From Halomicronema hongdechloris C2206 (GTDB lineage: Bacteria; Cyanobacteriota; Cyanobacteriia; Phormidesmidales; Phormidesmidaceae), in assembly GCF_002075285.3 (NCBI RefSeq), contig NZ_CP021983.2:2100001-2132000 (forward strand): DNA of 32,000 nt, read 5' to 3'. How positions within the stretch are numbered: the stretch's first letter is position 1; the number at the start of each line of letters is the position of its first letter. Position numbers and translations under genes: made by a program. The notes beneath the pieces are model-generated. The model made no database searches. It was given only the letters and a program-made list of their open reading frames with translations, and was not told where the DNA came from. Of this stretch, positions 1 to 31,271 are shown piece after piece.

Positions 1-482
1 GTGTAGATCACATAGCTGAGCTGCTCGAGTGCGGTAACTGGAGCAGGAGGATAGCTGGGGCTCTCAGCAATGCAGTCCCAATCGGTGTCTAGGCACAGAG
101 GGGAAACTGAGGTGGGTAGCACGCCAACGTGAGCTGCTTGCGTTAGCAAACAACGGGCCTGTGCGTCTTCTAGGATATAGGCCAGTCGCTCTTGAGGGTG
201 GCTCGGATCCAGAGGCACATACGCACCCCCCGCTTTCAGCACCCCTAGCAGTGCAATCACCATCGCCACCGAGCGCTCTAGACATACCCCTACTAAGGTT
301 TCAGGTCCCACGCCTTGGCCCTGCAGGTAATGGGCCAATTGATTGGCCCGACGATTCAACTCGTCATAGGTCAGGTGCTGCTGCTCAAACACTAGCGCCA
401 CTGCCTCCGGGCTGCGCTCCACTTGCGCTTCAAATAACTCATGGAGGCAAGCCTCTGAATACTCAGCCTCCGTCTGATTCCA
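1..482 (-). repeat. Copy 1 (cut by the window edge) of the near-identical Gly A-domain coding repeat
   Basis: By eye, 1-392 is identical to 14077-14468. Positions 430-482 match copy 2 (11344-11396) better than copy 3. Confidence 0.9.
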
Positions 483-28900: not shown

Positions 28901-31271
28901 TCGCGCATCTTTGTACTTCAGACTCGCGCGCTTCGCTGGAGAGATTCTGGCAATCTACTACCTTTAGTGGTAGCCAGCAGGATGGAGTAATTACCTGAGC
29001 CGGTTGACCCTCAACTAACTTAAACGTTGTTCGTAATGGCTCATGGCGTCGTATAACCTCATTCAGACTGCGCTCCAGTATATCTGCACTCAATGGACCT
29101 TGGAATTGCAGGGCAAAGGCAATGTTATAAGCTGGGTTGGCGGGCGCTAGTTGGTCCAGGAACCATAATCGCTTCTGGGGGTAGGAAAGCGGGTGATGTT
29201 GGCGTTGAGCTTTTACCGGTACCAATGGCACCGATGGCAAATGCTCTGGTAACTCCAATTGGGCTAAAATCTTGATGGCCAACTGGGTCAGATTCAGATG
29301 GTCGAAAAGATCACTAATGGATACAGAGACCTGGAGATCAACCTCAAGGCGGTTTTTCAGTTCAAATGCCTTCAGAGAATCCAATCCCAAGGCGCTGATG
29401 GGTTGCTGAGAATTTATCTGAGATGGCGTTATCTGCAGGACTTCGGCGACCAGTGCCTGTAAATAAGACACCAGCATGAGCTGAGCTTCAATCGGTGGTA
29501 GTGCTAGTAAGGTTTTGCGGTTAAGCGTAGCAGGGACTTCCCCAGGGATCGTTGTTTCCAGCAGGCTACTGCTGATGACTTCCAGATGGCCGGCCAGAAA
29601 CCCTGCCCGGGTAGCTCGCCGCTGAATTTTCCCGCTCGATGTTTTTGGAATCGTCCCGGGTTTAATTAACACGACGGCATAGGCTTGTACCTCATGCTCC
29701 TGGGCAATGGCCTCACGAATGGCTGCCGTCACTTCCTCCGGATCGGGTTTTTGTCGAAATTCCAATTCCTGAACAACAACCAGCTTCTCCTCTCGCTGCT
29801 CCTCCACCATAAACGCGGCCCCCCCACCCGAGCGCAGGGCTGGGTGACTCCGCTCCGTCGTCAGTTCAATATCCTGAGGATAAAGATTACGACCGCGAAT
29901 AATAATTAGGTCTTTAGTCCGCCCCGTAATAAACAGTTCTCCCTGGTGCAGGAAGCCCAAATCACCGGTGCGCAGAAACGGTCCTACTCCTGTATCAGCC
30001 AGATAGGCAGCAAATGTCTGCTCACTCTCCGCAGGCCGCTGCCAATAGCCTTGGCCCACACTCGGCCCCGATACCCAGATTTCACCGATCTCATCGCCAG
30101 CGCAGCGAATTTGTGTCTCAGGATGGGCGATCACAATCCGTTGTTGGGGCATGGTTTGGCCACAACCAACCAGGGACTGAGCTTGATCGACGCTGTGGCC
30201 ATTGGCTTCTACCACGCGATTGTGCTCCAGGGCAACCTTTTGCAGCAACTTCACCACAGGCGCTTCCTGCTGACGCCCACCGGAGACCATCAGCGTTGCT
30301 TCGGCCATGCCGTAGCAAGGATAAAACGCCTGGGAACGAAATCCACAGGTGGCAAACTCGGCGGCAAATCGCTCTAATGTTTGAGACCGCACCGGCTCTG
30401 CCCCGTTAAAGGCAACGGTCCAACTGCTTAAGTCTAAGCTTTGCCGCTGCTCCGGCGTCACCTTTTCAACACATAGCTCATAGGCAAAGTTAGGTGCCCC
30501 GCTGGTGGTGCCTCGATAGTGAGAAATCGTCTGTAACCAGCGGTAAGGGCGCTGCAGGAATGAAGCCGGCGGCATCAAGATGCAGGGAAAGTCTCCGTAT
30601 AGCGGCTGCAAGATACCTCCAATCAACCCCATGTCGTGGTAAACCGGTAGCCAAGAAACAAACACACTCTCCGGCGAATGACCCATGAGCTCGTAGGTGA
30701 CAGCCGCATTGTGGAGCAAATTACCATGGCTGAGCATCACCCCCTTGGGCATACCGGTGGAACCGGAGGTGTACTGGAGAAACGCCAGGGAATCTGACCC
30801 TAGGGTCGGAGGCTGCCACTCCCCCGCAGCTCCCGCAGCCAGGTCATCAGTGGTCAGCCACTGTAAATCGGCCAAATCTTCATGCTTCCGCAATAATGAC
30901 TGCAGCCTGGCTTGAATCACCGTGGTTGTCAGCGCTATTGCGGCCTCTGCATCTTTGACCACCGCCAGAATCCGGGGAGTATTGCGCTGATTGCGGGGAG
31001 GATAGGCAGGTACTGCGATGACTCCGGCGTAAAGGCAGCCAAAAAAGGCCGCTAAGTACTCCAAGCCTGGGGGATACAGCAACAGGGCTCGCTCTCCCTC
31101 CAGCCCCATGGCCTGCAGCCGCGCCGCGATGGTTCGACTCTGGTGATCCAGTTCCCGATAGGTGAGAGAACCAGCCTCTATTTCTCCATCCTTCAGAAAG
31201 GTAAACGCCTTTTGGCCAGGCTGATGTAGTGCCCTACGGCGCAAGAGATCGACCAGTGTGGAAAAGCTCAT
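25956..31271 (-). CDS. Loading and first-module megasynthetase FAAL-ACP-C-A(Asn)-T with a basic C-terminal tail
   Basis: 1771 aa. FAAL ~29577-31271 (FLQYTSGSTGMPKGVMLSHGNLL, GRTKDLIIIRGRNLYPQDIE, SSGKIQR). ACP ~29256-29504 (LGLDSLKAFEL Ser632). C ~27867-29195 (HHIIADEWS). A ~26322-27824, with hand-extracted code D-L-T-K-I-G-E-V-G-K versus canonical Asn DLTKLGEVGK. T ~26067-26288 (FFDLGGHSL Ser1698). Tail: QPSFQSMRDRAQKQIEAINRQKQLLMKQGKR. Confidence 0.95.
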   Translation of the reverse strand: MSFSTLVDLLRRRALHQPGQKAFTFLKDGEIEAGSLTYRELDHQSRTIAARLQAMGLEGERALLLYPPGLEYLAAFFGCLYAGVIAVPAYPPRNQRNTPRILAVVKDAEAAIALTTTVIQARLQSLLRKHEDLADLQWLTTDDLAAGAAGEWQPPTLGSDSLAFLQYTSGSTGMPKGVMLSHGNLLHNAAVTYELMGHSPESVFVSWLPVYHDMGLIGGILQPLYGDFPCILMPPASFLQRPYRWLQTISHYRGTTSGAPNFAYELCVEKVTPEQRQSLDLSSWTVAFNGAEPVRSQTLERFAAEFATCGFRSQAFYPCYGMAEATLMVSGGRQQEAPVVKLLQKVALEHNRVVEANGHSVDQAQSLVGCGQTMPQQRIVIAHPETQIRCAGDEIGEIWVSGPSVGQGYWQRPAESEQTFAAYLADTGVGPFLRTGDLGFLHQGELFITGRTKDLIIIRGRNLYPQDIELTTERSHPALRSGGGAAFMVEEQREEKLVVVQELEFRQKPDPEEVTAAIREAIAQEHEVQAYAVVLIKPGTIPKTSSGKIQRRATRAGFLAGHLEVISSSLLETTIPGEVPATLNRKTLLALPPIEAQLMLVSYLQALVAEVLQITPSQINSQQPISALGLDSLKAFELKNRLEVDLQVSVSISDLFDHLNLTQLAIKILAQLELPEHLPSVPLVPVKAQRQHHPLSYPQKRLWFLDQLAPANPAYNIAFALQFQGPLSADILERSLNEVIRRHEPLRTTFKLVEGQPAQVITPSCWLPLKVVDCQNLSSEARESEVQRCATQASQQPFQLSQGPLMRAQLFHLAPQQHVLLLTLHHIIADEWSVEVLIRELLGNYKGFLSHGEIPALPAVSVQYKDFTHWQRQWLRGERMEGQLAYWIQHLEGAPAVLALPTDHPRPAVQTYQGARQSLALPHPLTEKLKALSEQENVTLFMVLLAAFKTLLYRYTGQDDILVGSPIANRSRSELKGLIGFFVNTLVLRTDLSGNPRFQELLGRVRQVALGAYAHQDVPFNQLVEALQPERDVSHTPLFQVSFTLRQAPQLDTVPGLTVRPFEVDSKTAQFDLSLVVETTEQGLTTLFEYNTDLFEAATITRMLGHWQQLLEGIVASPQTRLSDLPLLTEAERCQILKQWNDTEVDYPRDLCIHQLFEAQVERTPDAVAVVFEQQQLTYRELNQRANQLAHYLQQLGVKPEGLVGICVERSVEMVIGLLGILKAGGAYVPLDPAYPQERLAFILADAKVSVLLTQRELLEALPTEGAAVVGLDTNWEKIAQENLNNPVNQTDSKSLAYAIYTSGSTGKPKGTLIPHRGLINYLTWCVQAYEVEGGKGTIVHSSLAFDLTITGLFSPLLVGRQVTLIPEDQSVESLTNVLRKESNLSLVKLTPAQLLLLTQQLLPKEAAGRTNAFIIGGENLLTENISFWQSFAPATMLVNEYGPTETVVGCCVYRVPHGETQSSSVPIGQPIANTQLYVLDQYHQPVPIGVPGELYIGGAGLGRGYLNQPELTAEKFVPNPFSDKPGTRLYKTGDLARYRSDGNLEFLGRIDHQVKVRGYRIELGEIEGLLRQHPDIREAVVVKREDVPGDQRLVAYVVSNIGVETTTNSFRNFLKEKLPEYMVPSVFIKLKALPLTTNGKIDRQALPVPDSTRPELEAAYVAPHSEIEQAIAKVWQEVLHLEKVGINDNFFDLGGHSLLMAQVNHKLQELFNQDLSVVELFQNPTINSLAQYLSRESKQQPSFQSMRDRAQKQIEAINRQKQLLMKQGKR

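Follow-up and report, generated by a model that had tools for sequence, protein, structure and literature searches.

What does the long block of biosynthetic genes on contig NZ_CP021983.2 of the cyanobacterium Halomicronema hongdechloris C2206 make, and what is the product for? The question was addressed with the 32,000 nucleotides (nt) at positions 2,100,001 to 2,132,000 of the forward strand, hereafter the window, which hold an operon of nonribosomal peptide synthetase (NRPS) and polyketide synthase (PKS) genes headed by a fatty acyl-AMP ligase (FAAL). The cluster is real, and the window spans the 5' two-thirds of its FAAL-primed peptide-polyketide assembly line, which is orphan and uncharacterised. 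By sequence comparison, the cluster belongs to a conserved, uncharacterised family present in at least four other cyanobacteria. On balance, the family is most likely a pathway to an acylated peptide-polyketide metallophore (siderophore), of which the H. hongdechloris copy is a rearranged and possibly damaged version.

An open reading frame (ORF) scan of the window placed all long ORFs (g1 to g13 below) on the minus strand, within positions 3–31,271 and with intergenic gaps of 0–70 nt. A first-pass annotation, made from the letters alone, had described 12 same-strand genes with such gaps; the strand and the gaps were confirmed, whereas the count of 12 is reached only when a broken sulfotransferase is taken as one gene. 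In order, the operon encodes FAAL-acyl carrier protein (ACP)-condensation (C)-adenylation (A, Asn)-thiolation (T); ketosynthase (KS)-acyltransferase (AT)-ketoreductase (KR)-ACP-FkbM methyltransferase (MT); a 3HCDH protein; an ACP; the sulfotransferase-like protein; an acyl-CoA dehydrogenase; an FkbH protein; C-A-T-C-A-T; the decarboxylase PanP; KS-AT-KR-ACP; a luciferase-like monooxygenase (LLM); and C-A (g13), cut by the window edge. Pfam domain E-values ranged from 1e-13 to 1e-238 across the operon proteins; thus, chance is no issue for the domain calls. On motif inspection, the window proteins retained the KS Cys/His/His triads and the carrier serines, and the C domains carried HHxxxD motifs. 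The operon therefore holds colinear KS-AT-ACP and C-A-T sets with intact catalytic residues, as expected of modular type I PKS/NRPS systems. The earlier statement that only the KR of the second PKS is degenerate was borne out by its Rossmann motif, and the colinear order fatty acyl, Asn, ketide (active KR, fused MT), Gly, Gly, ketide (dead KR), Gly was reproduced. The cluster had also been called incomplete on the left, which agrees with the run of g13 off the left end and with the Pfam search, in which no thioesterase (TE), reductase, epimerization (E) or heterocyclization (Cy) domain was found within the window.

The evidence on function comes from the relatives. Homologues of the KS-AT-KR-ACP-FkbM protein, 64–70% identical, occur in Brasilonema UFV-L1, Scytonema PMC 1069.18, Kalymmatonema NIES-4073, Nostoc UIC 10890 and a Coleofasciculus bin. 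The Brasilonema, Nostoc, Kalymmatonema and Scytonema loci contain the FAAL-NRPS, PKS1-MT and four cassette genes in the same order as the window, followed by NRPS and PKS genes. For Brasilonema UFV-L1, the identities were 66% for g1, 70% for g2, 82% for g3, 81% for g7, 83–86% for g8, 70% for the LLM and 65% for PanP. PanP lies within the Brasilonema and Nostoc clusters and on the same contig in Scytonema, and the stretch examined in Kalymmatonema ends earlier. The Nostoc UIC 10890 cluster, read from end to end, finishes with a PKS, a second PKS (KS-AT-ACP) and a C-A-T-TE protein; by analogy, PKS-PKS-NRPS-TE probably lies left of the window. The closest g1 (72%) and g2 (78%, without the MT) were found in a metagenomic locus (L083), which also encodes a penicillin-amidase-type acylase, two TauD proteins, a glycosyltransferase and a stand-alone C domain; the acylase, the TauD proteins and the C domain are features by which cyanochelin-like siderophore clusters are recognised. 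Two further loci (L084 and L170) share the gene order NRPS-PanP-PKS2 with the window. LLM-based scans of genome and metagenome contigs (160 loci) returned mostly unrelated NRPS/PKS clusters that shared generic domains only, with no LLM identity above 68% and no close synteny. The earlier claim that the gene combination fits no known pathway holds insofar as no characterised match was found in the literature and the only syntenic relatives are unannotated genomes with 56–86% protein identity; the combination is not unique, as its core is shared with at least four other cyanobacteria.

In all four syntenic relatives, an AMIN-Plug-TonB-dependent receptor gene is located upstream of the cluster in the opposite orientation. 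In three of them, the receptor and FAAL genes are immediate neighbours that diverge from one another, while a permease and a methyltransferase gene intervene in Scytonema. Moreover, in Kalymmatonema a Peripla_BP_2 binding protein is encoded beside the receptor, and the cluster itself includes an Asp/Arg hydroxylase gene. It is because of this receptor near every one of the four clusters that a siderophore function is proposed. As AMIN receptors are common in cyanobacteria, the weight is placed on the conserved position of the receptor and not on its type. In the relatives, a spacer of 780–1100 nt lies between the FAAL gene and the receptor gene or, in Scytonema, the two intervening genes, and the corresponding non-coding region of the window (positions 31,272–32,000, at least 729 nt) has no ORF of 100 or more amino acids (aa).

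Synthesis starts with g1 (25,956–31,271), which comprises FAAL (aa 4–567), ACP (607–672), C (690–1136), A (1157–1641) and T (1670–1734) domains; a FAAL followed by an ACP and a C domain is the arrangement of FAAL-primed lipopeptide synthetases. The best matches of aa 4–567 were FAAL models at 414–464 bits, scores that stay below the cut-offs set for full-length proteins since the query was the domain alone. The N-terminal 600 aa also matched the N-terminus of the NRPS/PKS model PRK05691, the best NCBIfam match, which we take to be a model built on PvdL. Specificity codes were read by ungapped core-motif alignment and by multiple alignment, and the g1 A domain gave DLTKIGEVGK, the code for Asn. 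The C domain carries the motif HHIIADE.

The next gene, g2 (PKS1; 20,442–25,955), is 100% identical to a database protein of H. hongdechloris C2206 (P0001) and contains KS (12–385), AT (533–862), KR (1184–1378), ACP (1479–1539) and FkbM MT (1625–1808) domains. Its KR (KR1) is of the active type, with an intact GGLGGLG Rossmann motif, a YSAGN motif and a Pfam KR score of 150 bits. The MT domain was assigned to the FkbM family (TIGR01444, 111 bits), and no solved relative of it was detectable by sequence. In the AT of g2 (AT1), the active-site loop reads GYSIGE instead of GHSIGE (aa ~640–660; window ~23,900–24,100), with a HAFH motif, and a 27-residue acidic insertion upstream of the active site is absent from the AT of the second PKS (AT2). 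GYSIGE was present in four of four examined PKS1 proteins that adjoin the cassette described below, compared with one of seven other ATs of the same clusters; the sole other case is the Nostoc PKS2, in the cluster without an LLM. The GYSIGE variant may thus mark the use of an ACP-linked extender. Separately, the ACPs of g2 (21,339–21,521) and g11 (3217–3402) have PCP-like GG(N/H)SL serine motifs in place of the usual ACP LGxDS, and each passes the chain to an NRPS C domain.

Directly after PKS1, the operon contains the four genes of an extender-unit cassette. These are g3 (19,566–20,420), a 3-hydroxyacyl-CoA dehydrogenase homologue of the FkbK/ZmaG type with Pfam 3HCDH_N and 3HCDH domains; g4 (19,300–19,545), a free-standing ACP of the FkbJ/ZmaD type (Pfam PP-binding) found at the same position in all relatives; g7 (17,168–18,352), an acyl-CoA dehydrogenase homologue of the FkbI/ZmaE type with the Acyl-CoA_dh N, M and C-terminal domains and 80–81% identity to relatives; and g8 (16,090–17,163), an FkbH-type HAD phosphatase/glyceryl-ACP-forming enzyme. 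The FkbH domain of g8 scored 280.9 bits against TIGR01686 (cut-off 146.7), with a DLDNT motif at aa 25. A set of FkbH, dedicated ACP, 3-hydroxyacyl-CoA dehydrogenase and acyl-CoA dehydrogenase converts a glycolytic intermediate to hydroxymalonyl-ACP, as known from FK520 and zwittermicin. The hydroxymalonyl-ACP-type cassette proposed by the first-pass annotation is therefore confirmed, with all four enzyme types clustered. The annotation had also read the first polyketide unit as a C2 ketide; the extension step holds, while plain malonate is probably not the substrate and hydroxymalonyl-ACP is probably used instead. No FkbG-type O-methyltransferase was found in the window, where the sole MT is the FkbM-family domain fused to PKS1.

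The second PKS, g11 (PKS2; 3100–7731), has KS (15–392), AT (539–823), KR-like (1154–1339) and ACP (1444–1505) domains and is 80% identical to its L084 and 67% identical to its L170 orthologue. AT2 is malonyl-type (GHSIGE/HAFH). In the KR-like domain (KR2), the glycine-rich loop of the Rossmann motif is replaced by VGDLVDGMG, and the Pfam KR score is 63 bits, compared with 150 for KR1. The degenerate motif is common to the Brasilonema and L084 orthologues.

The adjacent g12 (1988–3058) is a free-standing flavin mononucleotide-dependent LLM; the earlier identification as an LLM monooxygenase was correct and can be placed in the MupA/Atu3671 family (TIGR04020, 488 bits). Its best match in the PDB was 6KET, labelled PuwE (E = 2.5e-107), it is 79% identical to the L170 protein, and the order PKS2-LLM-NRPS is retained in Brasilonema and L170. 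The oxygenase domain of PuwE in the puwainaphycin pathway has been credited with a 2-hydroxyl next to a non-reducing PKS module, and the cyanochelin B cluster has an oxygenase (Ox) domain in its PKS part and a product with a tertiary alcohol beside a thiazoline. By analogy, g12 is predicted to be an alpha-hydroxylase acting on the PKS2-bound beta-ketoacyl chain, and since no aminotransferase partner for g12 is present, the keto group is probably kept. At the PKS2 position of Nostoc UIC 10890 (L085, 531–6617), a PKS with an active-looking KR, a GYSIGE AT and a C domain fused after the ACP was observed, followed by another C-A-T gene; that cluster has no LLM. This suggests that the Nostoc PKS2 and the LLM are two alternative routes to an alpha-hydroxylated ketide.

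Taken in order, the domains show the core chemistry by sequence. The FAAL activates a fatty acid and loads it onto the fused ACP, and the first C domain N-acylates Asn. PKS1 extends the acyl-Asn by a two-carbon unit, the keto group of which the intact KR reduces; two Gly modules follow, then PKS2, whose dead KR leaves the keto group, and a further Gly-type module, after which the line leaves the window. For the tailoring steps, we infer that the cassette supplies hydroxymalonyl-ACP, that the PKS1 AT with its GYSIGE loop installs it, and that the step yields a 4-amino-2,3-dihydroxy-adipamide-type unit. The fused FkbM domain might O-methylate one of the two hydroxyls, and the LLM, acting in trans, might alpha-hydroxylate the PKS2-bound beta-ketoacyl chain to a 2-hydroxy-3-oxo unit, as proposed for the PuwE Ox domain. 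The predicted readable product would be acyl-NH-CH(CH2CONH2)-CH(OH)-CH(OR)-CO-Gly-NH-CH2-CO-CH(OH)-CO-Gly-..., and the remaining part of the line, by analogy with Nostoc UIC 10890, would be PKS-PKS-NRPS-TE.

Several observations weigh against the siderophore assignment and the details attached to it. Within the window, no transporter, receptor, TauD or acylase gene was found, and no TonB-dependent receptor lies within the 729 nt upstream of g1. An AMIN domain is present in approximately two thirds of the TonB-dependent transporters of cyanobacteria, and a receptor of this type is therefore no hallmark of the family. The search for Fur boxes upstream of this cluster and three relatives gave no site better than those in shuffled sequences. 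The readable predicted product contains no canonical chelating group, that is, no beta-hydroxy-aspartate, catechol, hydroxamate or heterocycle. The substrate of AT1, the target of the MT and the substrate of the LLM are all deduced from sequence, and the HAFH motif of AT1 is the usual malonyl-type signature. Finally, the two lesions described below may be assembly errors; the frameshift falls inside a triplicated repeat.

That repeat involves the Gly-activating modules. The two-module NRPS g9 (9510–16,043) has the order C1-A1(Gly)-T1-C2-A2(Gly)-T2, and both A domains share the code DILQFGLIWK, which agrees with the Gly code at nine of 10 positions. NRPS3 (g13, 3–1949) begins with C and a Gly-type A domain and is cut by the window edge. 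By DNA comparison, the A domain of g9 module 1 (aa ~491–991; copy 1, 13,070–14,570) is 94.4% identical over 1501 nt to that of module 2, directly upstream of PanP (copy 2, 9908–11,405), and 98.9% identical to positions 1–445. The third copy (1–488, 96.5–98.9% identical to the g9 copies) is the start of the g13 A domain and runs past the window. The repeat unit is a complete A domain that starts approximately 20 residues ahead of core A1 and includes the whole of A10. Three Gly A-domain copies of 94–99% DNA identity are thus found in three modules with sharp boundaries, a pattern that looks like intra-cluster gene conversion or A-domain exchange.

Base composition and similarity set the g9 interior apart. 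A1-T1-C2-A2 (~9800–14,570) has a GC content of 57–60%, compared with 38–48% in most of the cluster, and the best match of this A-T-C-A block anywhere was 57–58%. C1 is 74% identical to its Brasilonema counterpart and T2 64% to its L084 counterpart; g9 is accordingly a mosaic in which C1 and T2 look orthologous to those of relatives. Over the rest of the cluster, GC content was 38–39% in the cassette genes (16,000–20,000) and 43–53% elsewhere outside the g9 interior, and the step was sharp. The high-GC block may be resident NRPS sequence or may stem from a foreign donor; the host genome is GC-rich, and on that ground the cluster outside the g9 interior would be the foreign part.

The relatives indicate what the Gly domains may have replaced. 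The gene between g9 and PKS2, g10 (7802–9457), had been labelled a group II decarboxylase and can now be specified as PanP, a pyridoxal-dependent aspartate 1-decarboxylase that supplies beta-alanine (TIGR03799, 616.6 bits, above the equivalog cut-off of 606.1). It is 100% identical to an H. hongdechloris database protein (P0121), 83% identical to the L084 and 70% to the L170 homologue, and the homologues of L084, L170 and Brasilonema all lie inside related clusters that also hold a beta-Ala A domain. The longest ORF of g10 starts at TTG (551 codons), and the database protein has 528 aa, which implies an ATG near 9388 and a gap of ~120 nt after g9. The A domain that immediately precedes PanP is of the beta-Ala type, VDWV(V/I)SLADK, in both L084 and L170, and in Brasilonema both modules corresponding to g9 are of this type. 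No beta-Ala-specific A domain (VDxVISLADK-type) was found in the window plus the database protein that extends g13 (P0241), where the A domains are Asn and three Gly-type only. PanP thus appears to be left without a client in the readable part of the cluster. Most simply, a single Gly A-domain cassette has spread through the cluster and taken the place of at least the beta-Ala domain; in the account preferred here, it overwrote the A domains of three modules, among them the one with beta-Ala specificity in the nearest relatives.

Two lesions bear on whether this copy still works. The first is in the sulfotransferase. The earlier annotation was right about the family, but the gene is not intact: a single sulfotransferase-family frame of 309 codons (g5+g6, 18,356–19,285) is interrupted by an in-frame TAG at 18,863–18,865 and appears as two ORFs, 18,863–19,285 and 18,356–18,838. 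The merged sequence scored 31.2 bits against Sulfotransfer_3 (cut-off 27; profile positions 5–214), compared with nothing or 23 bits for the halves separately; it is probably a pseudogene. The TAG is a substitution-type lesion, which makes an indel error of long reads an unlikely cause. This sulfotransferase is specific to the lineage, being absent from all relatives examined (Brasilonema, Nostoc, Kalymmatonema and Scytonema). Its slot, flanked by the genes for the cassette ACP and the acyl-CoA dehydrogenase, is taken by the Asp/Arg hydroxylase in Kalymmatonema (L167, 16,937–17,812) and is empty in Brasilonema, Nostoc and Scytonema. In L083, the glycosyltransferase and a TauD gene are located one slot before this one. 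The second lesion is in NRPS3. Within the window, g13 is 100% identical to P0241 (876 aa), which continues the same A-domain sequence, and the last 19 residues of P0241, LCPIPLAPHLGPVCTRLGT, are those that the homologous g9 DNA encodes in the +1 frame of the A8 region. A one-base frameshift relative to the g9 copies is therefore placed ~680 nt left of position 1; it may be genuine or may stem from misassembly of the repeat.

Because of the sulfotransferase stop and the NRPS3 frameshift, production in H. hongdechloris is uncertain, and the cluster could be a decaying remnant in this strain from which, owing to the accumulated lesions and the homogenised A domains, no mature product is formed. 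This is the best-surviving alternative, although we consider it rather improbable. It would account for the in-frame TAG, for the truncation of NRPS3 at 876 aa when its orthologues have ~1130 aa, and for a PanP without a beta-Ala module in the readable part. However, the four megasynthase ORFs of 1543–2177 codons run without a break and have intact catalytic residues, relatives do without the sulfotransferase, and assembly errors are likely in a triplicated repeat such as the one that holds the frameshift. Moreover, decay in this strain is compatible with a siderophore pathway as the explanation for the family.

A second alternative is a membrane-active lipopeptide product, cytolytic or antifungal and akin to anabaenolysin and puwainaphycin, in which case the receptors in the relatives would be coincidental. 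Asn with a hydroxylated C2 unit and Gly-Gly does correspond to the AOFHA-Gly-Gly part of anabaenolysin, the best solved relative of the LLM comes from the puwainaphycin pathway, and FAAL priming is common among cytotoxic cyanobacterial lipopeptides in the literature. Nevertheless, we judge this explanation unlikely, as the upstream receptor position is conserved across four genera, Kalymmatonema has a periplasmic binding protein and L083 has siderophore-type tailoring genes. Furthermore, anabaenolysin needs a beta-amino fatty acid, for which no aminotransferase is present in the window, and the line extends well past Gly-Gly.

That the N-acyl-Asn is a prodrug motif of the colibactin/zwittermicin/amicoumacin type, cleaved by a peptidase on export to free an active amine, is very improbable, even though an N-acyl-Asn followed by hydroxymalonyl-ACP extension resembles zwittermicin/amicoumacin logic and an Ntn acylase adjoins the cluster in L083: the Asn module of g1 is not followed by an E domain and should hence not deliver D-Asn, no ClbP-type peptidase was found in the window or at distances of up to 10 kb from the clusters of four relatives, the L083 acylase is of the PvdQ/CcsQ siderophore-maturation type, and the variable first residue of the relatives (Asn, Ser, Gly, or the unassigned code DAEDIGSIV-, with the last position not recovered, comparable to DAEDIGSIVK of L170 NRPS3) argues against a fixed Asn recognition motif.

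The siderophore assignment can be taken further, although only tentatively. In a stronger and rather doubtful form, the family would make an undescribed siderophore class with polyketide-derived oxygen ligands, and H. hongdechloris would be a natural case of triple beta-Ala-to-Gly A-domain replacement. Hydroxymalonyl-ACP extension would furnish one ligand, a vicinal diol or methoxy-alcohol, and the LLM the other, a reductone-like 2-hydroxy-3-oxo unit; together they would stand in for beta-hydroxy-aspartate, hydroxamate, catechol or heterocycles. The number of siderophores known from cyanobacteria is small; if the assignment is true, a conserved, receptor-linked family that combines the hydroxymalonyl-ACP cassette with an alpha-hydroxylase acting in trans would add a new chemical type of siderophore. 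Nostoc UIC 10890, Brasilonema UFV-L1, Kalymmatonema NIES-4073 and Scytonema PMC 1069.18 are concrete strains for testing it, and the two apparent ORF-disrupting lesions caution against expecting a product from H. hongdechloris itself. In addition, the GYSIGE AT signature, which goes along with the cassette, offers a marker of ACP-linked extender use that can be tested, and the three 94–99% identical A-domain cassettes with sharp boundaries provide a clean natural example of A-domain exchange for NRPS engineering.

The region upstream of the operon was also inspected. Positions 31,272–32,000 contained no promoter or terminator consensus, and no Rfam family match was obtained in the scan of the window or upstream region. 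A GC-rich inverted repeat, TTCCGGG ... CCCGGAA, is located at ~31,966–31,998, at the right window edge.

Among known systems, the closest are the cyanochelins, the Asn-hydroxymalonate-Gly-Gly portion of anabaenolysin, and zwittermicin/amicoumacin chemistry. Recent cyanochelin papers name a FAAL, a TonB receptor, a beta-hydroxy-aspartate interface domain and an Ntn acylase as markers of cyanobacterial lipopeptide siderophore clusters. Like the cyanochelin A, B and C (ccs) clusters of Leptolyngbya NIES-3755, Rivularia PCC 7116 and Myxacorys, the present locus is a FAAL-primed, one-direction, colinear NRPS/PKS operon with an oxygenation step by a flavin monooxygenase (Ox) among the PKS modules, an adjacent TonB-dependent receptor/transport cassette (here seen in relatives) and an optional Ntn acylase (L083). 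Beta-Ala with a dedicated supply enzyme is shared with cyanochelin C, but the enzyme is a transaminase there and PanP here. Unlike the cyanochelins, the window has no Cy module, as all C-type domains carry HHxxxD and stand in C-A-T order, and no TauD/beta-hydroxy-aspartate module, although TauD occurs in L083 and the Asp/Arg hydroxylase in Kalymmatonema. Conversely, the hydroxymalonyl-ACP cassette and FkbM MT found here are not described in the cyanochelin papers, and the monomer order is unrelated.

In anabaenolysin (Anabaena spp.), compared by product description alone, AOFHA followed by Gly-Gly matches g1 (Asn), PKS1 with hydroxymalonyl and g9 (Gly-Gly). AOFHA itself is an amino acid built from Asp/Asn by addition of a hydroxylated C2 unit. 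The anabaenolysins, however, are four-residue rings with a beta-amino fatty acid, whereas the fatty acid here would be joined to Asn by an amide bond, the window encodes no aminotransferase, and more modules follow. PuwE of puwainaphycin likewise has an oxygenase beside a PKS module that leaves the beta-keto unreduced, but the oxygenase is embedded in the synthase and g12 is free-standing. Fatuamide was rejected as a match because it is salicylate-primed and contains thiazoline.

The cassette has the same four enzyme types as FK520 FkbGHIJK, zwittermicin ZmaN/D/G/E and the amicoumacin/xenocoumacin systems, and in amicoumacin an Asn residue is extended by hydroxymalonate and then ketoreduced. 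The present cluster differs from these systems in its cyanobacterial host and its FAAL priming, in having an FkbM domain fused to the PKS in place of an FkbG-type O-methyltransferase, and in having no prodrug peptidase or E domain. With PvdL/PvdQ of pyoverdine, it differs in that the peptide and chromophore chemistry is unrelated and that no acylase was found in the window or the four closest relatives, but it shares an N-terminal fatty acyl-AMP ligase fused to an NRPS and, in one relative (L083), an acylase neighbour. The cluster is thus a variant within the FAAL-primed NRPS-PKS lipopeptide/siderophore kind, and the H. hongdechloris copy is a rearranged and possibly inactive one.

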